A stretch of DNA of 64,000 nucleotides, taken from assembly GCA_000092065.1 (NCBI GenBank), contig CP000601.1; one strand, given 5' to 3'. Position 1 is the stretch's first letter. The number at the start of each line of letters is the position of its first letter. The notes under the pieces were generated by a model. It was given only the letters and a program-made list of their open reading frames with translations. It ran no database searches and was not told the DNA's origin. A program made the position numbers and the translations under genes. The stretch comes from Ostreococcus lucimarinus. Taxonomy: Eukaryota. This document shows positions 3,591 to 59,135 of the stretch, one piece after another.

Positions 3591-3658
3591 GCGCATCGCC
3601 GCACTTCGCGACGCCTCTTCGGCTCGTTCGCGCGCGGAGACGTCGATCGCCGTACATC

Positions 3659-5696: not shown

Positions 5697-6130
5697 TTTT
5701 GTAATTCGTACATTTGCAATATGAAGACTCAACGAGACACCAAAAAGACCATGGTTTGGATCCTGACGAAATGACGAATGACGAACTGTTTTCATAAAGG
5801 TCCACACTGTTGCTTGTCATAGATCTAAAATAAAAATAAACATTAAAATATTTTAACATTTCGTCATTTTCATCATTGGTACACACAAAGTGTCACCGAA
5901 CGACGGGTTGACGAATTTGTGGACGACAAAACAAGTTCGTCATTTCGTCAGGTCTCGACGGATCACGAACGTCCAGGTGTGAAATCAGGCGGTTCGGTAT
6001 CTACATTCCGGACCTTGCAGCCCACGCAGCGATACGCGTACCTATGGTCTCTCGGATGTGACTGCAAACCGCAGGAGGAGGCACTTTTGGCAACAATATT
6101 TTCTTAGGGATAGATAGGTAACCAGGACAA

Positions 6131-6628: not shown

Positions 6629-6743
6629 CCACTTCACTCACACGATTGGTTCTGGAGAAATCTTACATGCGGTACATCAACGTCGATGTGCGGTTTTATC
6701 ATGTTGGGGTGCCCCAACTCAAAAAAAAAGTTTATTTTTATTA

Positions 6744-6971
6744 CTCATAGCGATAAATTTTTTAAAGTACTATCCGTCACCCCGAAACGACGAAAGTCAC
6801 AGTGTTGTCGTGTCGCTTTTCCATCACGGACAATCGGGTATGGGAAAAAGTAAGGTTTGATGTCGACACATCTCTTCCTGCGGGTTTCGATCCCGCGGCT
6901 TCCAGATCTCTATCGGAGCAGCCGTCATATTCGACGGAGACTTTTTCCTAACAGTCTGACACTCTACCAGC
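6744..6971. repeat. 228-bp direct repeat, copy 2
   Basis: Near-identical to 809-1036. Preceded by an A9 run and an AT-rich stretch (6700-6743). Confidence 0.9.
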
Positions 6972-7232
6972 TGAGTTAAGGAAGACTGTTTATGCATACG
7001 CACAACATCGCGGACATTCGACTGCCCATGCTCTTTATTTCGAGGCTTAACTCGGCGAGGTGGACGAATAATTGGTATTATACGTCGCTCGATGGTGGGT
7101 TTGCGACAGATCTTCGCGGCTTGACGCCGTCGATCCGCGATCGCGAATGTTACAGGTTGAGGGCTCGGGCGAGGACGTCGGTGGTTTTCGCGCGTTCGTT
7201 CGTTCGTCGTCACTCCGCGGTCGAATCCATCG

Positions 7233-34287: not shown

Positions 34288-34901
34288 TGTGCGTTTATTT
34301 CAACTGTTTCGAGCCACGCGCGCATCGTCAGTCCCCCTTCCTCTCGTCTCGCCTCGTCCCGCGTCCAAACCTCCCGCCATCGCGCCGCCATCGGATCGCG
34401 ATCGTCAACCTCGCCCCCCCCCCTCGCTCGCGACCCTCGCGCGCGTCCCGCGCCGCCCGATCCATCGCGCGCGTATTCCTCCCGATCGTTTCCATCCGCG
34501 ACCGACGCCTCGCGCGTCGCATCGCGGCGTCACCGCGTCCGATCGTCGTCCGCGCGCCGTCCGCGATCGATCGTCGTCCGCGATCGATCGCGCGGCGCCC
34601 GCATCGCCTCGCCCTCGCGTCGTCGCGCGCCCTCGCGCGCGCGCCGCGACGCGCGCGAATATTTCCCACCGCCGCGTCCGTCGATCGCCGTCGCGCGCGC
34701 GTCGTTCGCCGCGCGCGGGCGCACCTTTGACCGTCGAAGAATGGCGCCGCCGCCGTCCTGGGGTCTTCGCGAGGATGCGTCGACGCGTGCGTTTCGTCGA
34801 CGGTTCATGACTCAAGAGTATGTGTCTTCGTATGGGTAAACAGTGTGAGTATCAGCAGAACGCCGCCCAGCCTCGACGGCCCGCGCGGCGGACGCCGCAG
34901 C

Positions 34902-40366: not shown

Positions 40367-41302
40367 ATGCCGCCGCGCCCTCGCGCGGACGCGTCGGTGG
40401 ACCTCGCGCGCGCGCGCGCGAGCGCGGACGACGTCTCGCATCGCCTGTCGGACACGCGCGCGCGCACGGTGCAGGCGGTGGAGCTCACGGAGCGCGCGCT
40501 GAGGGAATTCAGAGACGCGGACGCGCGCGACGCATCGAAACCGCGATCGACGCTCGTCTCGCCGTACGACGGCGAGGAGGACGAGGAGGGCGGAGATAAC
40601 GAACTCACGGCGCTGGTGCGGCAGCTGGAGTCGTTCGCGGAGAAACGAACGGGGACGGGACAGGCGCCGCGAGGGGCGAACGGGACGAGCGGGACGACGC
40701 GCGGCGAACGGGAACGAGAACGGGAACGAGGAGGGGATAAATGGAGCGTGAAGAGCGGAGATAGCGGCGATGGACGATCGATGAACGATGAAAATTCGTT
40801 GGTCGGGTACTCGATGATGTACGGGAGCACGGTGGACGACGATGGGAGCGCGGCGGACGCGGATGAGCTCGCGAGCGAGTTTTCGGTTGATTTTTCGCTG
40901 CCGAGCGAACGCGTGGCTGGGGGTGCGACGGCGAGGAACGATAAAAAGAGCGAGCTCGGGAGCGTGAGTGGGCGGATAAACGCGGTGAGCGATAGTTTAA
41001 CGACGAGCAAGTCGCGATTGCACGAGAGCATCGCGAGCTTGGAGCTCGAAGCCGGGTTGACTGAAAACGGCGCCGAGATGGATTTCGAGCAGTACAAGGA
41101 CGACATGCCCGTGGTCGGGAACACGAAGACCGGTCAGGTCGTCATCGATTTAGCCGCGAGAGGCGTGAACTCGCTCAGTCGATCGAGTTCGCAGTTCATG
41201 GGCGAAGGCAAAGGCGGTCGGGGCGGCGACGGCGCCGAGCTCAGTCCGCTTGTGCGAATGTTCAATAGCGTGTGCGGCGGTTGTTGCGCCCTGCGCAAGT
41301 GA
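40367..41302 (+). CDS. hypothetical low-complexity (Ser/Gly/Asp/Glu-rich) protein
   Basis: ORF with host codon bias and C-terminal CGGCCALRK (possible lipidation/CaaX-like cysteine cluster). No family recognised. Confidence 0.3.
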   Translation: MPPRPRADASVDLARARASADDVSHRLSDTRARTVQAVELTERALREFRDADARDASKPRSTLVSPYDGEEDEEGGDNELTALVRQLESFAEKRTGTGQAPRGANGTSGTTRGERERERERGGDKWSVKSGDSGDGRSMNDENSLVGYSMMYGSTVDDDGSAADADELASEFSVDFSLPSERVAGGATARNDKKSELGSVSGRINAVSDSLTTSKSRLHESIASLELEAGLTENGAEMDFEQYKDDMPVVGNTKTGQVVIDLAARGVNSLSRSSSQFMGEGKGGRGGDGAELSPLVRMFNSVCGGCCALRK

Positions 41303-41461
41303 CGCCGCGCGCGAGATGACAACCACCACTAGCTACGGTGGGTGCGTGTAAAACTAAACAGCGCAGCGCGACGCGATTCGACGCGACGCGCGCGCTCGAA
41401 TCGAGACGAGCGTCTCTCGGCGCCGCCGCCGCCCTCGCGCGTCACTTCGAGCCCGCCCGCC

Positions 41462-42610
41462 ATGCCGCGACTCCTCTCTCCACGCGCCCTCGCGTCGTCG
41501 CGACTCTCCCTCGAAGCGACGGTGCTTCCGGGTCGTCGCGCGCGCGCCTCGCCGCGCGCGCGCGTCGCCGTCGCGCGGGCGTCCTCGCTGACCATCGCTC
41601 GACCGGACGACTGGCACCTGCACGTCCGCGACGCCTCAAAGCTCGCCGACGTCGTCCCGTTCACGTCGAAGACGTTCAAGCGCGCGCTGGTGATGCCGAA
41701 CCTGACGCCGCCCGTGCGCACGGCGAGCGAGGCTGAAAAGTACCGGGAACTCATCGCGAAGGCGGCGCCGGCGAGCGACGGATTCGAACCGCACATGACG
41801 CTGTATCTCACGGATAACACCACGGTAGAGCAAGTCGAGGAAGCGCACGCGTGTGGATTCGTGCGAGGGTATAAGCTGTACCCGGCAGGGGCGACGACGA
41901 ACAGTGAATTTGGGGTGACGGATGTGGCGAACGTGGCGAAGGCGACGAAACGCATGGCGGAACTGGGGCTGACGTTGCAAGTGCACGGAGAAGTGACGCA
42001 CGCGAGCGTGGACGTGTTCGATCGAGAGGCGAGATTCATTCAGGACGTTTTGATGCCGCTGTTGGATAGATCTCCGGATTTGAGGGTGGTGATGGAACAC
42101 ATCACGACGCGCGACGCCGCCGAGTTTGTCGCCGCGGCGGGGCCGAACGTCGCAGCGTCAGTGACGCCGCAACACGTGCTGTTCAATCGTAACGCCCTTT
42201 TCAAGGGTGGTTTAAGACCACATTTCTATTGCTTGCCCATCTTAAAGCGTGAGGAGCATCGCGAAGCCGTGCTCGCGGCGGCGACGAGCGGGAGCGGCAA
42301 GTTTTTCCTCGGCACCGACAGCGCGCCGCACCCCAAAGGCGCAAAGGAGGCCGCGTGCGGGTGCGCGGGTATCTTCTCTGCGCATGCCGCGTTGCCACTC
42401 TACGCCATGGCTTTCGAATCCGTCGACGCGCTCGACAAGCTCGAGGCGTTTGCGTCGCACAACGGAGCCGACTTTTACCGCGTCCCGCGTAACACCGAGA
42501 CGGTGACGTTGGAGAAGAAGGCTTGGAAAGTGCCGGATGAGTACAAGTTTGGTGACACTACGGTGGTGCCATTTTACGCGGGTGAGGAAATTCCGTGGAG
42601 CGTGGTGTAA
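41462..42610 (+). CDS. pyrC: Dihydroorotase (homodimeric/type II PyrC) with N-terminal transit peptide
   Basis: IARPDDWHLHVRD (metal-binding HxH). FKRALVMPNL. VHGEV...DVFDRE. HITT. LGTDSAPHP is the carboxylated-Lys and Asp region typical of E. coli/plant-type DHOase. Start set at MPRLLSPRALASSRL. Confidence 0.8.
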   Translation: MPRLLSPRALASSRLSLEATVLPGRRARASPRARVAVARASSLTIARPDDWHLHVRDASKLADVVPFTSKTFKRALVMPNLTPPVRTASEAEKYRELIAKAAPASDGFEPHMTLYLTDNTTVEQVEEAHACGFVRGYKLYPAGATTNSEFGVTDVANVAKATKRMAELGLTLQVHGEVTHASVDVFDREARFIQDVLMPLLDRSPDLRVVMEHITTRDAAEFVAAAGPNVAASVTPQHVLFNRNALFKGGLRPHFYCLPILKREEHREAVLAAATSGSGKFFLGTDSAPHPKGAKEAACGCAGIFSAHAALPLYAMAFESVDALDKLEAFASHNGADFYRVPRNTETVTLEKKAWKVPDEYKFGDTTVVPFYAGEEIPWSVV

Positions 42611-42658
42611 TTAAAATCGACAACAAATTGTAGGAGACGCGGCGAAGATAATCAGCCA

Positions 42659-43651
42659 TTACAAATTGTACGCCTCGCAGCTCTTGACGCCGTTCTCCTT
42701 GCAAAACTCGATGCTCAAATCCCAAAGCTTCGCGTTAGACTCGGCGTTTTTCGCGCGCGGCGCCATGGCATCGGCGCCGAAACCGGCGAACGCTTTGGAT
42801 AAGAGAGGCATGCCGAACATGTACGTCGCGCTCTTGTGCATCTTGAACAGCTTGGACATTTTAATCTTGAACGGCATGTAAAGCGTCGCCTTTGTTATGG
42901 ACGGCAGCGACGCCGCGTTCACGCTCGTCATCGCTCCTTGCGCGGGCGTCAAGGCCAAGATGCTCATGATCTTTCGCAAAACCGGGTTGTAATCTCTCCA
43001 AATGTTGCTCGCCACGAAGCCCGGATCTGCGGCGGCGCAGACGATCTTGTTATCCGGATACGCCGCATCCAATCGTCGCTGCAGCTCCACCGTCATCGCC
43101 AAACACGCCAACTTGCTCGACCCGTAGTTCCCCTTCGTCTTACTCGCACCCTTGTAGTAGTACTGATACTTGTTTGACCCGAACCACGTCGTCACCGAAC
43201 TCAACGCCACCACCCTCGCGCCGTCGCTCTTCATCAACTGCGGCAACAACAACGACGTGAGCATGAAGTGTCCGAGATAATTCACCCCCATGCATATGTC
43301 GTACCCTTGTTTCGTCGTCTTCGGTCCACTGTATCCGCTCGCCCCGTTCAATCCCGCGTTATTCACCAAGACGTCCAATTTTTCATACTCCTTCCCAAAC
43401 TTTTCCGCGAACGCCCTGACGCTCGCGGCGTCGCTCAGATCGAGCGCCATCACCGCCACGTCGTTCGCGCCCCCGTTTGACGCGTACTCGAGCGCCGCCC
43501 TCGCTCTGTCGATCGAGCGACACGCCATGACGACGCGCGCGCCGGCGTCCGCGAGCAACCTGGCCGTCTGCAACCCGATCCCGGTGTTCGCGCCGGTGAC
43601 CACGGCGATCTTACCGCGCATGTCCACCGCGCACGCGGCGCGAATGCCCAT
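42659..43651 (-). CDS. Short-chain dehydrogenase/reductase (retinol-dehydrogenase/WWOX-like SDR)
   Basis: KIAVVTGANTGIGLQTARLLADAGARVVMACR (TGxxxGIG Rossmann motif). LVNNAG. Catalytic YxxxK region (YGSSKLA). ORF open to 43750 and the start is ambiguous. Confidence 0.7.
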   Translation of the reverse strand: MGIRAACAVDMRGKIAVVTGANTGIGLQTARLLADAGARVVMACRSIDRARAALEYASNGGANDVAVMALDLSDAASVRAFAEKFGKEYEKLDVLVNNAGLNGASGYSGPKTTKQGYDICMGVNYLGHFMLTSLLLPQLMKSDGARVVALSSVTTWFGSNKYQYYYKGASKTKGNYGSSKLACLAMTVELQRRLDAAYPDNKIVCAAADPGFVASNIWRDYNPVLRKIMSILALTPAQGAMTSVNAASLPSITKATLYMPFKIKMSKLFKMHKSATYMFGMPLLSKAFAGFGADAMAPRAKNAESNAKLWDLSIEFCKENGVKSCEAYNL

Positions 43652-43860
43652 GGCGCTTCGTTGGACGACGTCGACGACGGTCGGGCGCGATCGCGCGCGC
43701 GACGCGACGTCGCGGCGGAGTGACGACTTTATCCACTTCGCTCGGGACACTTTTCGGCGCGACTCCGAGGCGCGACGCGCACGTCGCGACGCGCCGACGC
43801 GCTTCGACCGGTCGCGCGCGCGCGGACGAGCGACGATAGACGCGGGCGATCGTCGAGACG

Positions 43861-44505
43861 ATGCCGGCGCCGACGCGACCGCCGACGCGACACCACCACT
43901 TCGAGACTGGGACGTACAAACCGAGCGGGCTGTTCCTGCCGGACGACGAGTACGGACGCGCTTTGGACGCGCTGGTGAAGGGCTGCGTCGATTGCTTGCT
44001 GACGAACGAAAAGGGAGAGGTTTTGCTCGGGCTGCGCAAGCACGAACCGGCGAAAGGGACGTGGTGGTACATCGGTGGACGGATGCGCACGGGGGAGACG
44101 GTGGAGGAGACGGCGAGACGGCACGCGAAGCGAGACATCGGGATCGAGATCGACACGGAGCGGTTTCGATTCGTGACCACGAGCACGATGAATTGGGAAT
44201 TTCGAGTGCAGGAGCCGGCGGGGAACGGGACGTGCGATATTAACGTGGTCCTCGCGGCGACGCTGACGGAGGAGGAAATCGCGCGCAAGACGATGTGCGC
44301 CGACGAATATTTAGATCAAAAATTTTGGTCCGTGGAGGACATCTTAGCCGTGACGGACGAAAAAGTGATTTTACCGCCGATTCACATCTCTGCAAAGAAA
44401 ATGGTGTGGTCTGAACGCGAGGATGCGATGTACGCGGCGGTGGCTCGCGGCGCGGACGACGCGGAAATCGCCCGACTCGCGCGCCGCGCGTACGAGTTCG
44501 CGTGA
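43861..44505 (+). CDS. Nudix hydrolase
   Basis: Nudix box GGRMRTGETVEETARRHAKRDIGIEI (GX5EX7REUXEEXGU pattern). Confidence 0.6.
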   Translation: MPAPTRPPTRHHHFETGTYKPSGLFLPDDEYGRALDALVKGCVDCLLTNEKGEVLLGLRKHEPAKGTWWYIGGRMRTGETVEETARRHAKRDIGIEIDTERFRFVTTSTMNWEFRVQEPAGNGTCDINVVLAATLTEEEIARKTMCADEYLDQKFWSVEDILAVTDEKVILPPIHISAKKMVWSEREDAMYAAVARGADDAEIARLARRAYEFA

Positions 44506-44726
44506 AGCGTTCGACGTGGCGGACGCGGGCTTTCGCGAAGCCATAGTTAGACGCAATTGTTTTAATGATTGATGCGCAAATGTTTTCGTGTTGTTACACT
44601 AACTGACTAAGTAAGAAGTCTTCGATCATCGTCGTGAAAATTGGCGCGGCGGAGCGCACATCGTTAGCGCTGCCCATCCTTGCTTGAAAAAATGTTGTTT
44701 GTTTATCTTTGTCCGATATCGTTCGA

Positions 44727-45383
44727 TTAGAACAGCGCGGAGCCGCCCATGATCTTTTCGACGATCGGCAACGCGACGAGACCGATCATCGCACCGCGAC
44801 CGTTCGTCATCTCCGCCTCCGCGCGGAACGGCCCGAACGCCTCGGGCGCCTCGTCCAAGCCGTTCGGCGACGACTTCTTGAGCGCCGGCGCCAAAGAGGA
44901 CGCCAAGGTCAAGATCACGCAGGCCGGCACGAGGAAGAACCCGGCCGCCGGGTACGTGGACGTGCGCGTGATGCCGTCCGCGAGCGTGAACGTGCGTTCG
45001 TTGAACAATTGGTGCATGAAGCTCGTGTTCGACGTCAGCTCCACGTAGAGCGCCGCCGTCCACCCAATCATCGCCGCGCGACCGTTGATCGTCTCCACCG
45101 CGCGCGAGTCCTTGAACGCGAGCATGACGGAGTCGAGCATGGAGTTATCGTTCCCGAGCGGCGCCGCTTCGGCGATGGAGCCGTCGGCCGGGTCGATCGC
45201 GTCGACGCGCATCGTCGGCTGCTTGGACGCCGCGTCGGCATCCTTCCACTCGGAGTTCGCCTCTTCGACCGCCTTGGAGACGTCGTTTTCGGCGCGGACC
45301 GCGACGGAGGCGCGGCGGTGCGCGCGCTGCGTCTTGACGACGGCGCGGGCGGCGAGTTGGGGGCGAGTCGTGACGGCGAACAT
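44727..45383 (-). CDS. ELIP/LHC-like chlorophyll a/b-binding family protein (three helices, helices I and III carry the LHC motif)
   Basis: ETINGRAAMIGWTAAL and EMTNGRGAMIGLVALPI (ExxNGRxAMxG motifs) separated by a hydrophobic helix AAGFFLVPACVILTLASSL. Basic transit-peptide-like N-terminus from MFAVTTRPQL. Confidence 0.7.
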   Translation of the reverse strand: MFAVTTRPQLAARAVVKTQRAHRRASVAVRAENDVSKAVEEANSEWKDADAASKQPTMRVDAIDPADGSIAEAAPLGNDNSMLDSVMLAFKDSRAVETINGRAAMIGWTAALYVELTSNTSFMHQLFNERTFTLADGITRTSTYPAAGFFLVPACVILTLASSLAPALKKSSPNGLDEAPEAFGPFRAEAEMTNGRGAMIGLVALPIVEKIMGGSALF

Positions 45384-45766
45384 GTCGTGCGTGCGTGTGC
45401 GAGAGTGACGCGATGCGGCGCGCCGTCGACGGTGACGTCGAATTTTGTCATTTTCGCGCGTCACTGTTTACGCATACGAGCGGTCGGTCGCGCGACACGA
45501 ATCGTCGACGTCGACGGTTCGCGCGTGACGTCACGCGACCGCGCGACGAAACGCGCGGTCGCCGCGGTCGACGCGGTCGACGCGCGCGCGGTCGGAGGCG
45601 AGGCGTCGGCGTCGGCGTCGCGCGCGACGCGCGAAGCCCGCGGGGCGCGCGGCGAAGGGCGCGGCGAGACGCGACGGTGCGCGCGACGACGCGATGGACG
45701 CTTTATGACTTTATGGGTCCTCGGGACGAGGGGGCGAATGTTACAAGTTTGAGCGATGCGCGCGAT

Positions 45767-47947
45767 TCATCGCCCGTCGCAGACGTCCGCGACGTCGTCC
45801 GGTCGTCCGACGATGACGTCTTCGCGGTCGATGGTGACCATGCCGAGCCTGGCGCCCTTGGGCTTTTTCACGTACTTAGGAGACGTGTACGAAACGTTGA
45901 CTTTGCCGCCCGTTCTCACTTTCGAATGAAAGCTCGCGACGTTGGCGGCGAATTGGATGTCGTCGTCTGAGGCGGTTTCGCCTGGTTGTTGGCGAAGGAT
46001 GACGTGCGCGCCCGGGGCGCCGCGAACGTGAAACCACACGTCTTGGTCTTGTCCGAAGAAAAGCGAAACCGCTTCGTTTCCGCGGCTATTTCTTCCGCAG
46101 TACACCTCCTTTCCACTCGGCGCGGTATAGATGCGAATGGCGTTCATCATCTCTTGCTTACGCGCTTGCTTACCGGTTTTCGGCTTCGCGCCGCCGCCCT
46201 TCTTCGCCGCCGCCATCGCGCGCGTCTTCGCGTCGGCGCCCTTGCCCGTGGGCTTTAAGAATCCACCGTCCACGAGTTCGGCGCCAATTTCCTCGATGAA
46301 CAATAAATCGTCGCGCGATTTGAACTCGCTGACTTCGAGAATACTAAATTCGACGCCCTCTAAATACTCAATCTCGCTCGCATTTTGTTCGATGAGCGGC
46401 TCGACGGCGTCGGCGGTGCGACGCAGCTTTCTCGTCTTTTTGTACAGCGCCTCGGCGGTGCCCACAGGACCTTTCTCGGGATCTACTTTAAACATCACTG
46501 TCTCGCCCGTGGTGAAGTCTTGACCCTCAAGCTCGCTCGAACCAGGCTTATAGTTGTAACTGTACGCCATCAACGCGTCGGCGAGCAGTTGAATTTCTTC
46601 GTGCCCGCTCGCCGCCTCTAATTGCTTGCGGAACCCAACGTCTTTGCTCGCCAACTTTTTCAGACGCGCGCGCACGGCTTGTAAAATGCGCGAGCGTTCG
46701 CGCTCGAACACGTCGGTTTCGCCCGCTTCGCCGTACACAGCGCCGAAAAGAGCGCCGATCGGCCCGCCGGCAACGCTCAAATCGTCGGCGGCGGGCGGCA
46801 AGACGACGCCCGCGGACGACGGGTGCAATAACAACTGCCCGAACTCTTCGCACCACGTGGCGTTTGCGAGCGTACCCGCACTGTCGGCATCACTTGAAAC
46901 GCTCGCAATCCATCGCATGAACTCATCGTACACGGCGACCCAATCGCTCGCACTCGCGGTTTCGACGCGCTCGCCATCGGCGACGCCCGCGCCGCGAATC
47001 AACGCCTTGGCCAAAGCCGGTGACACCCCTCGAAACGCGCGCACCATGCACTCATCCAAACGCGCTTCGCCCATATCACCACTGCGACCGCGTGCGACGT
47101 CGCGCAACACCGCGGTCCATCCGTCCACGCCCCCTTCAACCCCGGTCGTGGGATCGATCCCGGGCGCCGAGGGCGGCGGCTCGTACGCGTACCCGATCGC
47201 CAATCGCCGCACACTCGTCTGTTTCTCCCCAACCTGATACCCACACGCTAAAACTTCATCATTATTTTTACTATCAAGCAAGAACGCGTTGCTGTACCGC
47301 CCCATGACCTCACACAACAGCTCGTACTCTGCCTCACCTCCCGGCCTATCGCCGAATCGCAACCGACACGCGCGTTCCCACGCCGTCCCCACGCGCGCAT
47401 CCAGCAGCACCTTCCCCTTGAGCAGCGCGTTCGCGCTCTCGCCAAAACTAAGATTCATCCCCTTCTCCACCTTGGCCCCGCGCGCGCTCATCGCGACGTG
47501 CGCGGTCACCGGGTGCCAACTCACTCGCACGCTCCGCCGTCCATCCGCCGCGCGCGCGTCCAGCGTCATCGAGTGCGCGTCCACCTGCGCGCACGCGTCG
47601 ATCTTCACCGGCGTCGACAGCGCGTTTATCTCCCGCACGCTCGCGACGAGGGCGGTGTAATCGAACGTCGCGGGCGTCGCGCGCGCGGCGCGAACGACGA
47701 CGAGCGAGCGGCGGTGACGCGGCGACGGCGCGCGCCGCGGCGACGCGAGCGACGCGATGCGCCAACGCGCGCGCGCGGGGATGCGTGACGCGCGGTACAT
47801 GACGCCGAGCGCGGGCGCGGGCGGGCCGCGGGCGCGCCGCGGGCGGACGCGCGCGAGGGAAAGTGAGGACGCGGCGCGAGCGGGACGCGAAGCGTCTCGG
47901 CGAAAGGTTCGGCGCGCGAATGAATATCTGGCGATGAGCGTTGACAC
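45767..47947 (-). CDS. NFACT/FbpA-DUF814 family protein (bacterial-type RqcH/NEMF homologue), with transit-peptide-like N-terminus
   Basis: C-terminal NFACT-R block DVWFHVRGAPGAHVILRQQ...NVASFHSKVRTGGKVNVSYTSPKYVKKPKGARLGMV. N-terminal NFACT-N-like region. Arg/Ser-rich presequence. Confidence 0.65.
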   Translation of the reverse strand: MSTLIARYSFARRTFRRDASRPARAASSLSLARVRPRRARGPPAPALGVMYRASRIPARARWRIASLASPRRAPSPRHRRSLVVVRAARATPATFDYTALVASVREINALSTPVKIDACAQVDAHSMTLDARAADGRRSVRVSWHPVTAHVAMSARGAKVEKGMNLSFGESANALLKGKVLLDARVGTAWERACRLRFGDRPGGEAEYELLCEVMGRYSNAFLLDSKNNDEVLACGYQVGEKQTSVRRLAIGYAYEPPPSAPGIDPTTGVEGGVDGWTAVLRDVARGRSGDMGEARLDECMVRAFRGVSPALAKALIRGAGVADGERVETASASDWVAVYDEFMRWIASVSSDADSAGTLANATWCEEFGQLLLHPSSAGVVLPPAADDLSVAGGPIGALFGAVYGEAGETDVFERERSRILQAVRARLKKLASKDVGFRKQLEAASGHEEIQLLADALMAYSYNYKPGSSELEGQDFTTGETVMFKVDPEKGPVGTAEALYKKTRKLRRTADAVEPLIEQNASEIEYLEGVEFSILEVSEFKSRDDLLFIEEIGAELVDGGFLKPTGKGADAKTRAMAAAKKGGGAKPKTGKQARKQEMMNAIRIYTAPSGKEVYCGRNSRGNEAVSLFFGQDQDVWFHVRGAPGAHVILRQQPGETASDDDIQFAANVASFHSKVRTGGKVNVSYTSPKYVKKPKGARLGMVTIDREDVIVGRPDDVADVCDGR

Positions 47948-47977
47948 GCGCGCGCGTTCGTTCGGTCGGTCGTTTGT

Positions 47978-49108
47978 CTAGGATGTCTTGGCCGATTTCG
48001 GGGTGACTTCCTCGGCGCGCGTCTCGCGAAGGAAGACGCGGTCTTCGGGCTTGTTGTTCTCTCGCTCTTCGTGCGCGTACGAAGACGCGATGGCGAGCAA
48101 GGACCCACAAGGACTGAAAGCGAGCGCTGAGATGGAGGTGGGGTAGCGGGGCGACTGAAAAAGTCGCTTTTTAGCGTCGCCATCCCAAAAATTGACGTAA
48201 CCGTCGCCGCCGCCCGTGGCGAATGTGCCGTGGACGGGATGAAACGCCACCGCGTGGACGGGATAAACAATCTCACCCACGCTCGCGTCATCGGTTTTGC
48301 GATGACACTTGAACGCATATTTTCGCTTGTCGTTCTCTTCATCGCGTATGAACTCCACCGCTACGCGTCCCTCGACGCTCGCGGCCACGAATCCATCGCC
48401 TCGGATATTTGCTGCGATGGCGCGCGTTTGAAACCGCATGCTCGAACGTCTATTTATCAACGGACGCGGCGGCGCTTCCGACGCGCGTCGTCCGTCATCA
48501 CCATCCACACCGCGCACTAAATCTCGCGTCTCGTACGCCAAAACTTGCCCATCGCTCGTCGCCACGAAAATCTTACCGTCTCTCAAATCCGCCGCGTAGC
48601 ACTTCCCAGCCGTCTTCGTCGTCGACACCGCGCGCCCTCGCTCGTCCTTCGTCAAATCCCACGCCCTAATCGTTCGATCCCAGCCAAACGTAAACAATTT
48701 CTTCGTCGCATCATCGTACTCCACCGCCGACACCGCGCCGTCGTCGTGCGCGCCGACGACGCGAAACGCGCCAGTTTTAAAATCGACGAGGCGCACCGAC
48801 CCGTCGAGGCATCCCACGCACGCCGCGTCCTCATCCGTCCCGACGAACGTCCCGCACAGCGCGGGCGCGCCCAAATCGATCGAGTTCAACGATTTCACGT
48901 CCCCGATCTCGCGCGCGCGGCACGCGTACCGCCGCGCGGTCCCGTCCCAGGACGTCACCAGGAGCGTCAACCGTCGCGCCATCCCATCGTCGTCGTCGTC
49001 GCGACCCTCTCCCGCGCTGACCGCGCAGAACCGCACCGCGCTGACGCCGTCGCCGAACGCCGCGCCTCCGGCCCCTCGCACGTCGCGACCGAGGTCTCGA
49101 TGCGCCAT
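47978..49108 (-). CDS. BUB3: BUB3 (or closely related RAE1) WD40 mitotic checkpoint protein
   Basis: YAFKCHRKTDD...EIVYPVHAVAFHPVHGTFATGGGDGYVNFWDGDAKKRLFQSPRYPTSISALAFSPCGSLLAIASSY is the diagnostic BUB3/RAE1 C-terminal block. N-terminal ...LVTSWDGTARRY. Confidence 0.7.
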   Translation of the reverse strand: MAHRDLGRDVRGAGGAAFGDGVSAVRFCAVSAGEGRDDDDDGMARRLTLLVTSWDGTARRYACRAREIGDVKSLNSIDLGAPALCGTFVGTDEDAACVGCLDGSVRLVDFKTGAFRVVGAHDDGAVSAVEYDDATKKLFTFGWDRTIRAWDLTKDERGRAVSTTKTAGKCYAADLRDGKIFVATSDGQVLAYETRDLVRGVDGDDGRRASEAPPRPLINRRSSMRFQTRAIAANIRGDGFVAASVEGRVAVEFIRDEENDKRKYAFKCHRKTDDASVGEIVYPVHAVAFHPVHGTFATGGGDGYVNFWDGDAKKRLFQSPRYPTSISALAFSPCGSLLAIASSYAHEERENNKPEDRVFLRETRAEEVTPKSAKTS

Positions 49109-49650
49109 CGCGCGCGCGCGTCTCGCGCGCGCACCGCGCGCGCGTCCCGACCGTCACCGCGACGACGTCGTCGTCGCCCGCGCGCGCATCGGTTTATCGC
49201 CGATCGACGACGGTCAAACGCGCGTTCGGGCGCCGTCTCGATCCATGTGCGATCGCGATGACGCGCGCATAAATAATCATCGCCGCGACCGAACGCGCAT
49301 TGCGACGCGCGCGAACGCCGTGTCGTGCGAGCGCGTCTCGCGCGGGCGTCGCGCGCGCACCGCATTTCGCGACGGCGGTCGATGCGGGCCCCGTCGCGCG
49401 CGCCGTGCGCGTCCGCGCGCCCGGAGGCCGGCGTCGTCGACGCCCTCGATGATCTCGCCGCCGTCGACGCCCGCGCGTGCGGCATCGGCAAGCTCACGAT
49501 CGCGCACGACGACGACGACGACGACGCGCGAGGTCTCCGCCATCGCGACCGCGGCGCGTTCGCCCTCGATTTGCGCGCGTGGTCGTTCACCGCGCGCACG
49601 CAGCCGGTCCGCGCGCTCGGGGCGTGCGCGCGAGACGCGTCCGTCGACAT

Positions 49651-52600
49651 GCGCGTGCCGTTCAGGGACGAATACGAGCGACACAGGGCGTCGCGACCGG
49701 ACGAACGCGCGCCGCGAGGGGCGAGTTGGCGCATCCATCGAGTGCGAGGATGGCGCTTCGACCTGCGCGCGCTGTACGAGGAGGTGAAAAGACGCGGTGG
49801 CGCGGACGCGATCGATGGAAATCAAGGCTGGCGCGAGGTCGCGGAGGCGATCGGGGCGCACGGACGCGGATGCGCGGCGGGACACGCGGCGAGAGCGCTG
49901 CACGGGGCGTGGCTGGAGGCGTTCGCGCGCGACGCCAAGCGAAGAGAAGACGCGGTGAAGAGCGCGCAGTTCGACGCGGTGAAGGGAGAGATCGAACAAG
50001 ATGACGCGCTGGCGATCGATGCGCTGTGTGGGCTCGAATTTGGGGCGTCGGGCGCGCCCGAACGGCGAGTCAAGGTGGAAAATGTGCGTAATTCGTGCCA
50101 TATCTTCTTCGCGCGGGACCGGGATGACGGCGAATCGCACGCGTTCGCGGCGCGTGCGACGCGCGCGCGCGATGATGGGCGTCGCGATGACGTGCGACTG
50201 ACTTTTACGGCGCGTGTTTTCGCGACGCAGGGCCTCGATCTCGTCGCCTCGCAGCTCGCGGACGCGCCCGAGGGCGACGCCGACTGCGACGTGTGCGGCG
50301 CGAGCGGGAACGAAGACGCGATGATCCTGTGCGATGGGTGCGATCGAGGGTGCGTATACGACAATGCCACGCGAGAACGCGCGCGTGAAAATTATCTCGA
50401 TCGTTCGGACGCGCGTTCGGGGAGAGAGAGCGCTCGCGCGGCGCGCGAGGGCGCGGCGAACGCGCGCGTGGGCGACGGTTAGACGTGGGGTTTAGAGGCG
50501 CGCGGGGGAGAAGGAGCCGCGAAGGAGCGACGAGACTGACGAATGATGCGCGCGTAGGTCACATATGTACTGCTTAACGCCGAAGATGACTGAAGTGCCG
50601 AGTGGAGAGTGGTTTTGTGGACGATGCGAAGAGATTGACGCGGAGGTGGAGCGATTGAGCGCGGATGAAGGGACGCAGTTTACGCTCGGCGATTTCAACG
50701 AGGCGTGCATAGAATTTGATACGGCGTTCTTTGGCGAGGACGCCAAGCGAACTGGGATCGATATGCAGGTGATTGAGGAGTGTTTCTGGCGAATGGTTGA
50801 AGATGCGAGCTCGGTGGATGATGTTTGCGAGGTCAAATGCGGCACGGCGATTGACACGACAAAGTACGGAAGCGGGTTCCCGAGACACGGCGAAGCGCTT
50901 CAGGTAAAGATTGACGGCGTGAGCCCGGAATCTATCAAGCGCTGGTCAGAGTCGAAATGGAATCTCAACAACGTCGCGCGCGCGAGTGGGGAAAAGTCGT
51001 CGCTACTGGGCGCGTTGAAGGATGACGTGGCGGGCGTGACGACGCCATTCTTAGAAGTCGGAAGCACGTTTAGTTCCACGACTTGGCGTCGAGAAGAGCA
51101 TAACATGTACAGTATCACTTACAATCACTGGGGTGCCGCGAAACTGTGGTACTGCGTGCCGGCGAGTGCAGCGGACAAGTTGGAAGAATGCTTCCAGAAG
51201 GTGATGCCCGACGTCTACGAGGCGCACGTCAACGATTTGGGAAGCGTCTTTACGATGCTCTCGCCGAGCTTCTTGATGAGCGCGGGAGTGCCCGTGCACA
51301 CGTTGGAGCAATTCCCAGGAGAATACGTGGTGACGTATCCCGGGGCGTACTACGCGTCGTTCAACTGTGGATTGAACTGCACGGAGAGCGTCAACTTTGT
51401 GCCCGCTGACTGGCTCCCAGAGGGCTCGGCGAGCGTGGAGAGAAACCGATCGTACGCCAAGCGTTCATTGTTTAGTCACGACGAGTTGGTTTGCAGAGTA
51501 GCAAACAATCCTAGTTCGAGCATAGCGCCGCACTTGTGGCCCGAGATTGCGCGCTTGTACGCTGAAGAGGCAAACGGTCGCGCCGAGCTTTTCGCGTCTG
51601 GCGTGACGCGCAGCGCGCAAATGACGTCAGCAGACGACGACGACGACGACGATGGCTGCGAAAAGCCTCGTAAAGTACGATCTAGGTTTGACGATGCATC
51701 GAACTCTGGATCCGATGAGTGCGTTGTTTGTCGACACATTTTGTACTCGTCTGGCGTCGGGTGCTCGTGCGACGAGACGCGCAAGGCGTGCTTGCGACAC
51801 GTCAACGACTTGTGCAAATGTGCGATGTCGAAGAAGACGATGTTTTACAGAGAAACAGTGGCTGATTTAGAAAGTCTGGTGAAGAAGACGGAGAAGGCGC
51901 TTTCTCAGAAGGAACTAGCCAGCTTAAAATCCAAGCACAGCGACTTGGACTCAGTCACAGTGAACAAGAATCTCGTCAAGAAGGCTCAGGCTTGGGTGAA
52001 ACGAGTGGGCGAAGAGCTCGTCAAACCACCTTTGCCGCCGCTGGACAAGATGAGAAATTTACTCGCTGCGGGTGAAGAGTTTATTTGGGGTGGTGCTGAT
52101 ATGAAGGCGGCTCGAGAAGCGTACACTCGCGTGACGAACGCCGTCGCGTGGCAGACGAGTCTTGTGGCGCTGAAGCAAAGGCTTGGATCCAGTGCTGGTG
52201 CCGAGGCCGCGCACGATGACGCTGGTGAAGCGCGATTGAGATTGAACAGACTAAAAGAGCTCCTTGACAACCCACCGGTACCGATGCCTAAGGCTGATAC
52301 TCAACCTTTCCGCGATTTGCTCGCGGCGGGCTTGAAATTGGAGGAACGCATCAAGGCGGCTCTCGCCGAGGTACCGAATCCATCTCCTCGCGCTTGTACG
52401 ACGCTTCAAACTGAAGCGAATAAGTTTGGTGTGGAAGTCCCTTCATATAAAAAGCTGAAGGACGTCATCGTTAGAGCAGGCGCGTGGTCCACGAAGGTGC
52501 GCGGCGCGCTTCCAGGACGACGACAACTCCCGCCGCGCGAGGAACTAGCGAATGCTCGAGAGATCGAGGCGTTATACGAAGAGGCGCATGGATTACCCGT

Positions 52601-55600
52601 TCAGCAGAGCGAACTCTTGACTTTGCGCAAATCTTTAGAAGAGTTGAATTTTTGGCGCGCAAAGTCTGAGTCGCTGTTCGTCGCCAAGGTTGACGTGGAA
52701 GAAGCCGAGGCGCTTCTCAAGGAGGGCATGGCGTTGTCAACAAAACTCGACGAGGTCGACAGACTAGCCGATCAAATCAAAGCTGTCAAAGTGTGGGCCG
52801 ATCATGCTCGAGCGAGTGATTATCCGGGAGCAAGAGTGACGGATTTGCACATGCTTCTCGTCGAGGGTGAAAAGTTTAGCGTGCGAGTGGACGAAGTCGA
52901 GTGGTTGCGAAACCGTATCGTCGTCCGGGAGCTGGCAGAGAAATTGAAGGACATGGTTTCATCGAAGAAATATCCGCTCGCCGAAGTCGAAGCGGCCGTG
53001 CGGGCGGGTAACGAGTTCCTCGACTCCGAAGATAAAGAGGTTGCCCCAGATGAAGAAGCGCTGCTGGCGCAGTGCGAGAGCCACATCAACGCGGCGAAGA
53101 AGTGGAACGAGCGCGCGGCGGTGATGCTCAAATCTCTCGATAGTAAGGACCGACCGTCACTCGAAGACGCCGCGTCGCTCATCCGCGAAGGAAGCTCGAT
53201 TCCAATCTTTCTGAATGGATTCGACGTGCTTTCAGAAGCGGTCAATGTAGCCAAGTCTTGGTTGGATCGTGCACAACCTTGTTTGAAGGGAAAGCAGCTC
53301 ACTCGTCGCGGTGTGTCAAATCCGATTCCGCCGCTTTCCGAGGCGCAAGAGCTCATGAAAGAGTCTTCGAACTTGAAATTGTTTGTCAAGGAAGTTGAAG
53401 CTTTGGAAGAACGCGTCGAAGCCGCAGAAGAGTGGGACGTGGACGCGAAGGACGCCATCGAGCGCTGGCGAGAAGACGGCGCCGAGGTGACGTTGACCGA
53501 GCTTGAACTTTCGCACGAAGACTTTGGATTAGAATTACCAGCCATGGAGACAGTTCGCATTCGTTTAAAGTCGCTCAAGTGGGAAGAACGCGTCGCTAAG
53601 ATCATTGCACCCAAGGCGAAGCTCGTCGAGGACACCGTTTTGGACGAGCTCAGGGAAGAAATCGACGTGCTTCAAGACTTGAAAGAGGATCTTGTCGCTG
53701 AAATCATGAAACGGTACACGATTGTGGACGAATGGCGCAAGAAAGCGGATCGTTTGCTCGATCCTCCTCTCCTTGAAGACGGTCGATTGGCTCCGAGTGC
53801 ATCACCGGAGGAAATAGACGCCCTCATCGCCGAAGGCAAGGCACTTCCCGCTGACGTCTCGAAGGTAGAAGACCTCGAGGCGTCGTTGGCGGATCACGCA
53901 CAGTGGGTCGACACCGTTCGTAAGTGCTTGAACAGTGTCGCTGAAGGTCGATCTCGCCCTTCGATTGACGAATTATACGATCTTCTAGCGGAGGTGGAAG
54001 ATTTGACCTTCAAGTGCTCAGAGAGACAAGCGCTCACAAATGCGTGCAACGCCGCCACGGCGTGGACGGAGAGGCTCAACGCGTTGCTCTGGGCAAACGA
54101 TCAGGGTGAAGTCAAACAAGAAAAAACGCTTATCGAAATGTTGAGCAATGTTCTTGATTCCATCAAAGCTGGTGTGGAAGACATCACCGGGACTGGCGAA
54201 CCGCCGGAGACGGAGGAGGGTTAGTTCTGCCTTTGTCGACAAGCTGGAGGAATTCAAATGGTTGGATGTGATGATTGCGGTGACTGGTATCACTTAAAAT
54301 GTATCAATGTGACGCCTACTATGGCAAAGACGATGCACAATTACATCTGTCCGCCATGCATCGCGAAGAGTGGCAAGGCGAGCGCACTCTCGTTGGATAC
54401 GTATCGCTCGGTGCATCGCACCAATCGCCCAAACGTCATGCTTTTGCGAGAACTCCTCGGTGAAGCGCAGCGATTTCCTGGAGAAGTGCCAGAAGAAGCC
54501 GTGTTGAATCAAGTCATCAATACTCACGACGCGTGGCGATTGGAAGTACGAAAGACTTTGCATAGAAAGAGTATGAAGGAAGCACACGACAACGCCATCA
54601 GTCAAGCTTCGAAGATTGCCCAAGAAGCAGCGATGAGAGAATCTGAGGAACGCACACGACGAATCGCCGAAGCGTCGCTCGCGGCGACTGCAGAGAACCC
54701 CAATCCTCCAGCTTCTCTCACGCCATTACAGCAAGTCATGCTGATGGGTCAAGCTGTCACGTTCGCCGCAACGCAGCGCACGCACGCGTTGAACATTTCG
54801 CCGTGTTCGCAGGAGATTTCAGATGTCGTCACAAAGCAGCTCGGGCAACTTCAACAGCTCGCCATGCAACTCGCGATGTGCCAAGCTCAAATTCACATGG
54901 CTCCAGTTCGGTCTAGGCCCCACATCCTCCACGTCTTGATGATGCAGCAACAGCATCTAAAGATGACAAACGAGCACGAGGAAGAGCTGGCAAATGTTGG
55001 CGCTAGCAACTGGCTCATGGAAGCGACTCTGCAACTATCTGGAATGTCTGGCATGATGCCGCCGCCGACGGCGCAAGACACCGGCAAAGAACCTTCAACA
55101 TCCACGGGTCATGGTAGTCCAAGCGATATGTCTGCTCAGTTGAAGACGAACGAACCGATGATGGTTCCGCAGCAGTTCATGTTGCAACCGGCCATGCCAT
55201 CGCTTGTCGGCGACGCGTCTGGAATGCCCAAGCAAGAGATGGATTACACGTATGACATTCCTCGAAAAGATAATGTCGATCCAGCGCTGCAAGTGTACGC
55301 GGGCATGAAGGGTGCTCTGGCGATGGAGCTGGAACCTGTTGAGGAGACGCTCGCGTTGATGCGCGAAGTGTGCGGTCCGGCGTGGAGAGAACAAGCCACG
55401 CGGCTCATGACTGGTGCGCCGTTCCCGAGGTTGATCAAGCTTCACGAGCTCAAGGAATCTGCCATGGCTGCTGGTCTTTGCCCTGGTGCCGGCATTGATC
55501 CTTTGGCCGATCGCGCGCACGCGTTGGAGGTTGCTGGACAAATCTGGCTCGAACGCGCCGCCGCCGTCGTGCAAGACAAAACGATTCCTATCGAGGCGGC

Positions 55601-56087
55601 GCAGTTGCTGCTTCAAGAGGGTCGATCTTTGCCTTTATACTTGAAGGAGGAGCTCGAGGAGTTGGGAGAGCGATGCGAACTGTATTGCGTTTGCCGAAGC
55701 GCGTACGACGCTCTCAGGCCGATGATTTGCTGCGATCGATGCGATGGTTGGTTTCATTACGAGTGCATCGGCATGCAGTCGCCGGCGCCGGGCGAGGAAG
55801 ACGAAAACGCCGAAAACGTCAAGTTTGCCTGCCCAGAGTGCTGCGCGGCGCAAGGTATTCCGTACGTTCCGTTCCGTCCAGCGCCGAAGGACACGGACAA
55901 AGCGCCGGAGCGAGCCGCGCCTCCGCCGGCTGAAGAAGCTCCGGAGCCGCCAAAGACGGAAGAAGAAGCGAAGCCGCCCGCTAAACCAGAACCGGAAGTC
56001 GCGGACAACAAGAAGAAACGAAAAACGGTGGAGCCGACTCCGCCTGCTAATAAAAGTACCTCTAGTCGCAGCAGAAGACGAAAGTAG
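49651..56087 (+). CDS. KDM5/JARID1-like JmjC lysine demethylase (ARID-PHD-JmjC-C5HC2-PLU1-PHD-PHD); segments 49651..50349, 50558..54221 and 54225..56087 with one intron and one unresolved in-frame TAG
   Basis: ARID (FDLRALYEEVKRRGG...AARALHGAWLEAF). PHD1 is split by an intron (CDVCGASGNEDAMILCDGCDRG | SHMYCLTPKMTEVPSGEWFCGRC). JmjC core (HTTWRREEHNMYSITYNHWGAAKLWY...EQFPGEYVVTYPGAYYASFNCGLNCTESVNF). C5HC2 zinc finger (CVVCRHILYSSGVGCSCDE). Two C-terminal PHD fingers. TAG 54222-54224 lies in frame between the PLU1 region and PHD2. Confidence 0.7.
50350..50557 (+). other. spliceosomal intron (208 nt) splitting the first PHD finger of the KDM5-like gene
   Basis: GTGCGT donor right after ...CDGCDRG. 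ACTGACG at 50535-50541. GCGCGTAG acceptor. Splicing reconstitutes a perfect C4HC3 PHD finger. Confidence 0.8.
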
Positions 56088-56135
56088 TTCTCTAGATTTA
56101 CAACATTTGACACAATAAACAACAACTTCAATAAT

Positions 56136-57362
56136 TCAACCGTCCAGGTGCTCGTCCCATCCCAGGTCTCGTTTCGGCTTGCGCCTACCGACCAACTTGG
56201 CCGCGTCCAGTTCGGTCAACAATTCAATTTCGTCGAGTGTTTCCTCGCTCACATCGATGTCGTCCGTCACCGCGAGCTTTTGACCCTTTCTATGACGCTC
56301 GACGAGTTCTTCGAGATATCCTTGCTTTGCGTAGTTCGGTATCAACCTAGACATGTACACGCCGCGCAAAATACGTTTTTCTTCCTCAGTCAAATCGCCG
56401 TGAAACCCTCGGCGGTTGATCCGGTCCGTCACGGCGTGCGACATCACGAGCGCGGCGGCGACGGAAATGTTCAAAGACTCGGTGAAGCCAAACATCGGAA
56501 TGTACACGGCGCCATCCCGCAGCGCTCGCGCCTCGTCCGAAACCCCCTCGCGCTCGTTCCCAAACACCACCGCCGTGGGCACGGTCCAATCGTAATGCGA
56601 CAGCGGCTGCGCGCCGTCAAACTCAGTCGTAAGAACGCGGTATCCTTTCGCCTTCGCGACTCTGAGCGCGCGTTCCGACGTCTCAAACTGCTCCACGTGT
56701 TGCCACTTCAGCGCCCCTCCCGACGTCCTCCCGCTCGCCTTGAACGACAGCCCCTTCGAGCTCACGATCGACGCGCACCCGATCCCCAGCGCCTCCGTCG
56801 TCCGACACACCGCCAAGATATTGCCGACGTCGTAGACGCCCTCTAGAATCGGCAGCAACGAAAAACTTCTATGCTCCAAAACGTTTTCCAGCCGCATGCG
56901 TCGCTCTTCCCCGACCATCGCCGTCGCGAGCGCCACCATCGTCTCCGTCTCGCACGTCGCCCTCGCGAACGCGAATCCATCGCCGTACGGGAATCTTTCC
57001 CTCTCGTCCTCGTTCGCGCGCGTCCCCAAATCTTCCCGCCGCGCCCGCACCAGCCCGTGAAACTCCAGCGCGTCCGGCGCCCACGCGCGCTGCCTTCGGT
57101 GCGCCTTCGCGCTCTTCGTCGCCACCGCGCCCGTGCGCGCCACCGCGCGCGTCGGTCGCGGCGTCGTGCGCTTCACGACGACGTCGTGCGGGCCGGCGTG
57201 CGCGCGCGACCCCGGTTCCGACACCGATTCCGATTCCGCCGCGTCGTCGTCGCGCGCGCGTCGCGTCGCCGGTCGAGCGACGCGCGCGGCGCGCTCGCGA
57301 GCGTCGCGTCGATTCGCGTCGATTCGCGATCCCGCGCCCGCGATCGCGCGCGTCGACGCCAT
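56136..57362 (-). CDS. SpoU/TrmH-family RNA 2'-O-methyltransferase
   Basis: SpoU blocks VLEHRSFSLLPILEGVYDVGNILAVCRTTEALGI, AVVFGNEREGVSDEA and YIPMFGFTESLNISVAAALVMSH. The N-terminal Arg-rich part of the ORF is likely non-coding or a presequence. Confidence 0.65.
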   Translation of the reverse strand: MASTRAIAGAGSRIDANRRDARERAARVARPATRRARDDDAAESESVSEPGSRAHAGPHDVVVKRTTPRPTRAVARTGAVATKSAKAHRRQRAWAPDALEFHGLVRARREDLGTRANEDERERFPYGDGFAFARATCETETMVALATAMVGEERRMRLENVLEHRSFSLLPILEGVYDVGNILAVCRTTEALGIGCASIVSSKGLSFKASGRTSGGALKWQHVEQFETSERALRVAKAKGYRVLTTEFDGAQPLSHYDWTVPTAVVFGNEREGVSDEARALRDGAVYIPMFGFTESLNISVAAALVMSHAVTDRINRRGFHGDLTEEEKRILRGVYMSRLIPNYAKQGYLEELVERHRKGQKLAVTDDIDVSEETLDEIELLTELDAAKLVGRRKPKRDLGWDEHLDG

Positions 57363-57520
57363 TCGAATCGCCGCGCGACGCGAAGTGTCGACATCGCGTC
57401 GCGCGGCGATTCGAATCGCGTCGCGCTCGAACGGCGTCGCGTCCTCGCGACGCGCGCGCGATGACGCGCGAACGTCGCGCGCGCGCCGCGCGGTCGCGGG
57501 GCGCGCGCGCGCGCGAGACG

Positions 57521-59032
57521 ATGGCGGCGGTGACGCTCGGGACGTTTTTGGTGTTGGGACGCGCGGGCGCGTTTCGCGGCGCGAGCGCGCGGCGCGCGCC
57601 GCTACAGGCGATGGACGCGGGCGCGGGAAGCGCGGGAGGGACGGCGTCGCGGCCGGCGCGGCGATGGATGACGCACCTGCTGCGCGATCACCCGGAGATG
57701 CGATGCACGCAGATTCCGAGCAAGCCGGTGATCGTCGGCGGCGACGGCGGCGGCGCGGGAAAGCCGCTGATGGAATTCCTGAGGGATTCGAACGCGGTGA
57801 CGTTCGGACCGACGGATAAGGATGGGAACAGCGACGCGGAGCGGTTGAGCGGGTTGGATGACATGGTGGTGGACGTCATGGCGTTTTCGAAGCGGTTGCT
57901 GTACGAACCGGATGATTTGCCGATGGATTTGCAAGCGGATTTAGCGAAACATTTGTGCGATATGTTTGCGAGACAGGAGAAGTGGTTGCACCCGGGATTG
58001 ACGATGAATGGGATACAACACGATCAAGAGGTCGGGCGGTGGGGATGGAAGGATCCGTTGGCGATGTATTTGGTGCCGATTTGGAGAGACGTGTACGGGC
58101 CGTCGGTGACGTACGTGCACTTGGTGCGGGATCCGCGGACGCTGCCGCTCGGGAATTTGCACGACAAGGAGCGGGATTTACAAAAGGCGTACTTTGGTCA
58201 AGAGCGATGGGAGCAGTTGACGGCAAAATTTGAATCCGAGTGGGCGCATCTCTCCCAGCACCAGTCGATGACGAGCGTGAAGAAGGACGACGTGATTGAT
58301 TTATTGCGCACGACGGCGTACTGGACGTCCATCAACTTTGAGCTCGGGGCGCTCATCAAGGGCCCGCTCAAGAACTACGCCACGGTGCTCCGGGCGGAGG
58401 ATTTGGTGCAACCGGACATGGATCACTTCCGACGCGACGCCACCGGGAAAAAACCGGAAAAGTACCAAGCCGCGCAAAAAGTCATGCAAGAGCTCACGAC
58501 GCTCCTCAAGCTCCCGGCGAAACTTTCCAACACGCTGGGAAGCCACGAACACATGAAGCAAAACCTCCGACGGTTCACGATCCACCGCGAAAAGTTCGTC
58601 TACCGCACCGACTCCCCCATCATCGAAGTCCAAACCCGCATCGCCGAGAAGACGTTGGAACTCTTCGGCTACTCCGCCGACGCCGCGCTCTTCGTCTCGC
58701 GGCACCCGTCGTCGAGCGAGCCCCACGGCCATCGTCTCACCCCCGAGGGCGAGTACATGCACGAGGAGCACAGGTATACTCCCGACGATTTCGAGCCCAC
58801 GATCGAACCCGCGTCGGAGGGCGATCTTCCCGGCATCACCAACCACGTCCTCGGCGCTCAGCTCAAGTACACCGACCGCGTCGAGCTCGAGCGCGCCAAG
58901 ACGCGCGCGCCCGACACGGAGCAATCTCGCGCCGTCGAGGCCCAGCTCATGGAGGCTAAGAAGAAGACCTTTTTGCTCGAAACCACCAAAATCGACGGCA
59001 AGTCTCTCAAGGACGTCATCGACCATCTGTGA
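57521..59032 (+). CDS. hypothetical secreted/membrane protein, sulfotransferase-like fold suspected
   Basis: Signal-peptide-like MAAVTLGTFLVLGRAGA. Long protein-like ORF with WGWKDPLAMYLVPIW and HLVRDPR reminiscent of P-loop sulfotransferase 5'-PSB/3'-PB regions. Assignment is weak. Confidence 0.35.
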   Translation: MAAVTLGTFLVLGRAGAFRGASARRAPLQAMDAGAGSAGGTASRPARRWMTHLLRDHPEMRCTQIPSKPVIVGGDGGGAGKPLMEFLRDSNAVTFGPTDKDGNSDAERLSGLDDMVVDVMAFSKRLLYEPDDLPMDLQADLAKHLCDMFARQEKWLHPGLTMNGIQHDQEVGRWGWKDPLAMYLVPIWRDVYGPSVTYVHLVRDPRTLPLGNLHDKERDLQKAYFGQERWEQLTAKFESEWAHLSQHQSMTSVKKDDVIDLLRTTAYWTSINFELGALIKGPLKNYATVLRAEDLVQPDMDHFRRDATGKKPEKYQAAQKVMQELTTLLKLPAKLSNTLGSHEHMKQNLRRFTIHREKFVYRTDSPIIEVQTRIAEKTLELFGYSADAALFVSRHPSSSEPHGHRLTPEGEYMHEEHRYTPDDFEPTIEPASEGDLPGITNHVLGAQLKYTDRVELERAKTRAPDTEQSRAVEAQLMEAKKKTFLLETTKIDGKSLKDVIDHL

Positions 59033-59135
59033 GGTGTAATTAAAACCAAACGCGCCTCGCGCGTCCCGCCGCGTCGCGAACGACCGTTCAAACCCGCGCG
59101 CTGGATGTGCGTCACATCGCGCCCGGTCGTCCGTC

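Follow-up and report, generated by a model that had tools for sequence, protein, structure and literature searches.

KDM5/JARID1 proteins (human KDM5A-D, Drosophila Lid and the Arabidopsis JMJ14 type) are H3K4 demethylases with the domain order ARID, PHD1, JmjC, C5HC2, PLU-1 and C-terminal PHD. An Fe(II) triad is needed for JmjC demethylase activity. The animal protein JARID2 (Jumonji) combines ARID, JmjC and C5HC2 domains, has lost its iron-binding residues and is catalytically inactive; to our knowledge it has neither PHD fingers nor a PLU-1 domain. Here we describe a KDM5-like gene in a 64,000-nt stretch of Ostreococcus lucimarinus CCE9901 DNA (the window, at its full length). The domain order that it encodes (ARID, PHD1, JmjC, C5HC2, PLU-1, PHD2, PHD3) is common to the KDM5/JARID1 family. 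Among solved structures the best matches were JMJ14 (5ykn, E = 1.9e-58) and KDM5A (5ceh, E = 8.6e-58), and matches to KDM5A, 5B, 5C and JMJ14 were obtained at E 1e-54 to 1e-58.

Unlike KDM5 proteins, the Ostreococcus protein has no detected JmjN (no Pfam match at E <= 0.1 in the N-terminal 420 aa), which is present at the locus of a distant orthologue, L002. Two of the three Fe(II) ligands of the HxE...H triad are also replaced. In an alignment to KDM5A and JMJ14, the equivalent of KDM5A His483 is Arg (codon 51087-51089) and the equivalent of His571 is Tyr (codon 51351-51353); the JmjC motif reads WRRE compared to WHIE in KDM5A and WHVE in JMJ14, and AYY compared to AYH in both. The same replacements were found in L001, an Ostreococcus relative with 82% identity, while L002 keeps H-F-E and Y-H. 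Finally, the C-terminal PHD fingers, which KDM5 proteins possess, would be cut off in CCE9901 by an in-frame TAG.

With two Fe(II) ligands replaced, the protein is probably catalytically inactive, and this form of it probably arose within Ostreococcus. Like JARID2, it joins ARID, JmjC and C5HC2 domains with lost iron-binding residues, and JARID2 chains match its JmjC region (E ~1e-31). Unlike JARID2, it is a KDM5-type protein with its own separate ligand loss, as L002 keeps HxE...H. The sequence comparison suggests that in Ostreococcus it is probably an inactive, JARID2-like reader or scaffold, in which case the C-terminal PHD fingers would be a more serious loss rather than a lesser one. The ligand sites lie at window positions 51084-51101 and 51342-51359, and the gene is under purifying selection in wild populations. 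Loss of Fe(II) ligands under continuing purifying selection may hold more biological interest than the TAG.

The TAG itself is comparable to strain-specific premature stops in reference genomes that cause one gene to be annotated as two. The same elements are seen here, namely a single-base nonsense difference from conspecifics, a downstream frame that is still intact and gene prediction resumed from the following ATG. The present case is special only in that a sequence was found that is identical save for one base and a 48-nt intergenic indel, which dates the change as very recent.

Gene model and domain organisation

Genes are dense and introns few in the window. Removal of two inferred introns from the KDM5-like gene (Table 1) yielded a predicted product of ~2116 aa with an ARID and a complete PHD1. 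The ARID in this spliced model scored 29 bits in Pfam against a cut-off of 24.1, and a 366-aa ARID ORF is present in the gene calls of relatives. Removal of intron 2 joins CDGCDRG to SHMYCLTP, and the resulting PHD1 matched the full Pfam profile (1-47 of 47, 48.2 bits). Intron 1 is less certain than intron 2 because it is in frame and stop-free. Further downstream and upstream of the TAG, Pfam identified JmjC (PF02373, 108.8 bits, E = 2.8e-31), C5HC2 (PF02928, 52.6 bits), PLU-1 (PF08429, 209 bits) and KDM5_C-hel. The two C-terminal PHD fingers (PF00628, 59 bits) are in frame and belong to the same ORF in all relatives; in CCE9901 they lie behind the TAG. They are accompanied by basic tails, KKKRK (56010-56024) and RSRRRK (56067-56084).

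Table 1. Features of the KDM5-like gene, in window coordinates
Feature	Position	Strand	Remarks
Inferred exon 1	49382..50083	+	From ATG; holds ARID; spliced model
Inferred intron 1 (147 nt)	50084..50230	+	GTGCGT...CTGAC...CAG; inferred from sequence
Inferred exon 2	50231..50349	+	Encodes first half of PHD1
Inferred intron 2 (208 nt, phase 2)	50350..50557	+	GTGCGT...CTGAC...TAG
Exon 3 to premature stop	50558..54221	+	JmjC 51051-51398; C5HC2 51720-51878; best PLU-1 stretch 53103-54086
Premature TAG	54222..54224	+	Derived base T at 54222; ancestral CAG (Gln)
Post-stop ancestral coding sequence	54225..56087	+	PHD2 54228-54359; PHD3 55686-55841; natural terminator TAG 56085-56087
609-aa ORF	54258..56087	+	Begins at first ATG after TAG; lacks first two Cys of PHD2

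Both GC (0.55-0.58) and GC3 (0.60-0.63) of the KDM5-like gene (window 50001-56000) are clearly below those of neighbouring genes, in which GC3 is 0.71-0.81. Similarly low GC3 values, 0.62 and 0.54, were obtained for the ZIP and CobW genes, respectively, which lie where the window begins (1-10000).

The TAG codon and the split open reading frame

The TAG stands in the context GAG GAG GGT TAG TTC TGC CTT TGT CGA and ends an ORF of 1219 codons (50565-54224) that is followed, in the same frame and after a gap of 33 nt, by the 609-aa ORF. Translation of 50565-56087 gave 1841 codons with a single internal stop, located at residue 1220 of the long ORF and at approximately residue 1496 of the inferred spliced protein. 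The open continuation after the TAG comprises 620 codons with two complete PHD fingers, and the chance of 620 open codons following the TAG is ~8e-12 at the local base composition. The Pfam match to PHD2 is complete (profile 1-47 of 47) and begins at the second residue 3' of the TAG. The first two Cys codons of the finger (54228-54230 and 54234-54236) are therefore situated between the TAG and the ATG at 54258.

A first-pass annotation, made from the DNA alone, had noticed the TAG between two ORFs of common frame, had argued that these ORFs are one gene and had placed the first two Cys of a PHD finger in the gap between them. The sequence and its translation bear out the first point, the uninterrupted ORF of 1840 or 1841 aa in relatives the second, and the position of the Pfam match the third. 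It had also located the TAG exactly inside the PHD finger. The TAG is instead separated from the first Cys by a single residue (Phe) and is thus just upstream of the finger; it is the downstream ORF, begun at its ATG, that is cut. In the reference annotation the 609-aa ORF is a separate 'predicted protein', which an exact-sequence look-up found as XP_001421121.1 and XP_001422833.1 (ABO99414.1 and ABP01192.1). ORFs next to it gave matches to the CCE9901 genome as well.

Comparison with orthologues and related haplotypes

The first-pass annotation had proposed comparing the orthologous residue at the stop. All seven orthologous proteins that cover the site, ranging from 82% down to 45% identity, have Gln at this position, within the sequence G(T/S)GEPPE(T/S/H)EEG-Q-FCLCR. 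The Gln codon is CAA in L001 and CAG in L002. As GEPPExEEG-Q-FCLCR is present in all of these orthologues, conserved coding sequence extends as far as the TAG, which occupies the position of an invariant Gln.

Closer relatives gave the same result. Of the related contigs from other samples that cover the site, 16/16 have CAG, and in each the ORF runs without a break for 1840 or 1841 aa. These were 14 metagenome contigs, L032 and a Logan contig from SRR23274481. The 14 metagenome contigs (Tara, JGI, ENA and Logan) are 99.4-99.8% identical to the window over 8-13 kb, and all have CAG and an 1841-aa ORF. Similarly, the 90%-identity protein cluster includes many 1841-aa metagenome members that are >99.6% identical to the read-through translation, with Gln at the stop.

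The closest CAG sequence was the SRR23274481 contig_3577 (28.6 kb). Compared to window 41205-64000 (22.8 kb), it differs by one substitution (C instead of T at 54222) and one 48-nt intergenic indel, and it has an uninterrupted 1840-aa ORF. It also has the window's four other private changes in the KDM5-like gene: 49791 G, the lost Asp codon after 51632, 54675 T and 55434 A. Since this contig is near-identical but has CAG, the TAG arose from one C>T substitution on the haplotype of CCE9901 itself, and a very recent one because the otherwise identical haplotype still has CAG. The T was also recovered independently of the original reference reads. Logan SRR1179203 contig_456 is 100.000% identical to window 40398-59108 (18,711 aligned positions), TAG included, so the T at 54222 is reproduced by other reads. 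The CAG>TAG change itself is derived, recent and reproducible.

Collectively, these results make it highly probable that a very recent C>T nonsense mutation (CAG>TAG, Gln to stop) occurred in the sequenced CCE9901 line and that the separate 609-aa protein is an artefact of annotation. The first-pass annotation had listed four mechanisms, and the last of them, a recent pseudogenising mutation, is the one that the evidence picks out.

We also compared variation in the gene between the window and its relatives. In the metagenome relatives, the post-stop part has eight synonymous and no non-synonymous variants, which indicates that this part is functional coding sequence in the relatives, under purifying selection in the wild. 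Metagenome polymorphism over the whole gene amounted to 20 synonymous and 7 non-synonymous variants. The window's private changes in the gene were 0 synonymous and 4 protein-altering substitutions plus one in-frame codon deletion (Fisher p = 0.010 against the metagenome polymorphism). In a control, private changes in the window's other genes numbered 11 synonymous and 11 non-synonymous, from which those in the KDM5-like gene did not differ (p = 0.11). We considered whether constraint had been relaxed over the entire gene in this lineage and dropped the idea in view of the control and of the near-identical CAG haplotype, which carries the same other changes with its ORF open. There is thus no good evidence that the gene was decaying before the TAG arose.

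Alternative explanations

Two further readings of the nonsense mutation would give it a different meaning; we consider the pair of them improbable, and none of our results speaks for either. The UAG might be read through usefully, with Gln inserted by near-cognate tRNA-Gln, or the truncation might have been selected in laboratory culture as a natural separation-of-function allele that removes the PHD2/PHD3 reader module of a catalytically dead KDM5-like scaffold.

Next in likelihood, and quite improbable too, is that the region is present twice in the strain, on chromosome 21 and on chromosome 13 or 9. One copy would have TAG and the other CAG, and assemblies would differ in which of them they report. 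Chromosome 21 of O. lucimarinus is reported to consist of duplicated regions from chromosomes 9 and 13 that were fused (PMC2367439). Accessions of the ABO99xxx series and also of the ABP01xxx series exist for the 609-aa ORF, for the SpoU gene and for the EF-1-alpha-like gene. The two GenBank accessions for the 609-aa ORF suggest that a second copy of the region is present in the assembly. However, an identical protein of 609 aa, begun at the ATG after the TAG, is annotated for both copies, and a CAG copy would have been predicted as a long gene. The protein records therefore imply that both reference copies carry the stop. As a separate observation, several genes of the window have protein accessions in these two series, which fits the duplication of chromosome 9/13 sequence into chromosome 21 (PMC2367439).

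A sequencing or assembly error, which the first-pass annotation had also put forward, would mean that the true base is C and that the gene is intact in CCE9901. The near-identical SRR23274481 contig does have C at 54222. In addition, the exact Mlh1 protein (718 aa) of the window was found by look-up in no other assembly on record, and its exact AlkB-methyltransferase fusion protein had no record, so the reference may contain errors elsewhere. Against this, the different read set of SRR1179203 has T and agrees with the window at all of the 18,711 aligned positions, and the reference annotation likewise takes the site as a stop. Because a separate assembly has the TAG, an error at this base is very unlikely.

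More doubtful again is programmed or efficient readthrough, or decoding of TAG as Gln, by which full-length protein would still be made. In its favour, the codon lost to the stop is one for Gln, UAG is known to be misread by near-cognate tRNA-Gln in eukaryotes, and the downstream frame is still intact, although the recency of the mutation accounts for this. On the other side, TAG terminates 10 of 22 confident genes in the window, among them Mlh1 at its conserved C-terminus. In both Mlh1 and the M24 peptidase, which end in TAG, the Pfam C-terminal domains extend to the last residues. This genome thus uses TAG as an ordinary stop, and a code variant with TAG as Gln was rejected by the survey of the 22 genes. 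The KDM5-like gene has one TAG, its terminator apart, compared to 66 CAG/CAA codons. The predicted RNA fold of the 100 nt from the TAG onward was no better than that of shuffled sequence (z = +0.42), and UAG-UUC is not among the leaky stop contexts known to us. Relatives have CAG or CAA rather than a conserved stop, which argues that nothing is programmed here, as the first-pass annotation had suggested it might be. The window contains no tRNA gene, and so none for a suppressor tRNA. Terminator use, RNA fold, relatives' codons and tRNA genes thus gave no support for readthrough.

Two proposals are the least likely of all. A short or non-canonical intron is exceedingly improbable, including the unusual intron with its acceptor in the TAG that the first-pass annotation had raised. 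An in-frame GT (54174) and AG (54223-54224) are present and would delimit a 51-nt candidate (54174-54224), which fits the size class of 40-65 bp reported for the short non-canonical introns of O. lucimarinus chromosome 2 (PMC2367439). However, this stretch encodes EDITGTGEPPETEEG, which is kept as protein in orthologues down to 45% identity, and the ORF of relatives is open through it. The gene's own introns follow GTGCGT...CTGAC...AG, and a search of 54000-54400 for GTGCG-type donors and CTGAC-type branch patterns gave only one TTGAC, at 54003. The C>T change makes no new splice site. Protein conservation across the site and the absence of the genome's splice signals rule out an intron, the 51-nt GT..AG candidate included. 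Equally improbable are two independent genes with a terminator and a promoter in the 33-bp gap, a reading in keeping with the separate annotation of the 609-aa ORF in the reference and refuted by the comparative data, as PHD2 requires the two Cys codons in the gap and all relatives have one ORF.

Predicted consequences of the premature stop

On the preferred reading, a nonsense mutation, the C>T transition at 54222 turned an invariant Gln codon, CAG, into TAG. Translation would then end at the TAG to give a product of ~1495 aa without PHD2, PHD3 and the basic, NLS-like C-terminal tail. Approximately 1.9 kb of former coding sequence would become 3' UTR, and the mRNA may undergo nonsense-mediated decay. 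Reinitiation at 54258 would give a finger minus two zinc ligands. With the two fingers and the tail predicted to be missing and the mRNA possibly degraded, a strongly hypomorphic or null allele is the probable result, judging from the sequence. Ostreococcus is haploid.

The downstream protein of 609 aa in the annotation results from gene prediction and does not represent an independent gene. The mechanism is not new, being an ordinary nonsense mutation that led to a split in the annotation. The finding is of value for curation, as the reference strain has a truncated KDM5-like gene whose 3' part is annotated, under two accessions, as a 609-aa protein in its own right. The split gene should be allowed for in chromatin or epigenetic studies of CCE9901 and in orthology tables that draw on this proteome.

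Other observations in the window

The 48-nt stretch that is missing from the otherwise identical SRR23274481 contig is located at 57361-57408, within the 98 nt that separate the SpoU-type methylase gene from a 523-aa gene and form their divergent promoter region. It makes up most of a perfect inverted repeat (TTCGAATCGCCGCGCGACGCGA ... TCGCGTCGCGCGGCGATTCGAA), and the corresponding spacer in L006 is also ~53 nt shorter. The stretch may be either a real polymorphic palindrome or an effect of assembly.

The Mlh1 gene (28209-30365) has two non-synonymous differences from three 99.8%-identical relatives, at 29787 and 30189 (ancestral Tyr to His and ancestral Asp to His). Either this mismatch-repair gene has truly acquired private changes or the reference is in error at these sites. 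In the spacer between Mlh1 and the M24 peptidase gene, three single-base insertions relative to three relatives, at 30500, 30530 and 30553, fall within 54 nt. The M24 ORF is 587 aa in the window compared to 704 aa in two of the three relatives compared.

The EF-1-alpha-like gene (32884-34288) has a second copy ~220 kb away on the same ~530-kb chromosome in the related assemblies L019, L021, L024, L026 and L027. Identity between this copy and the window is 100% across precisely the 1405 nt of coding region, and the flanks are unrelated. The paralogues thus look as if they are kept identical by gene conversion.
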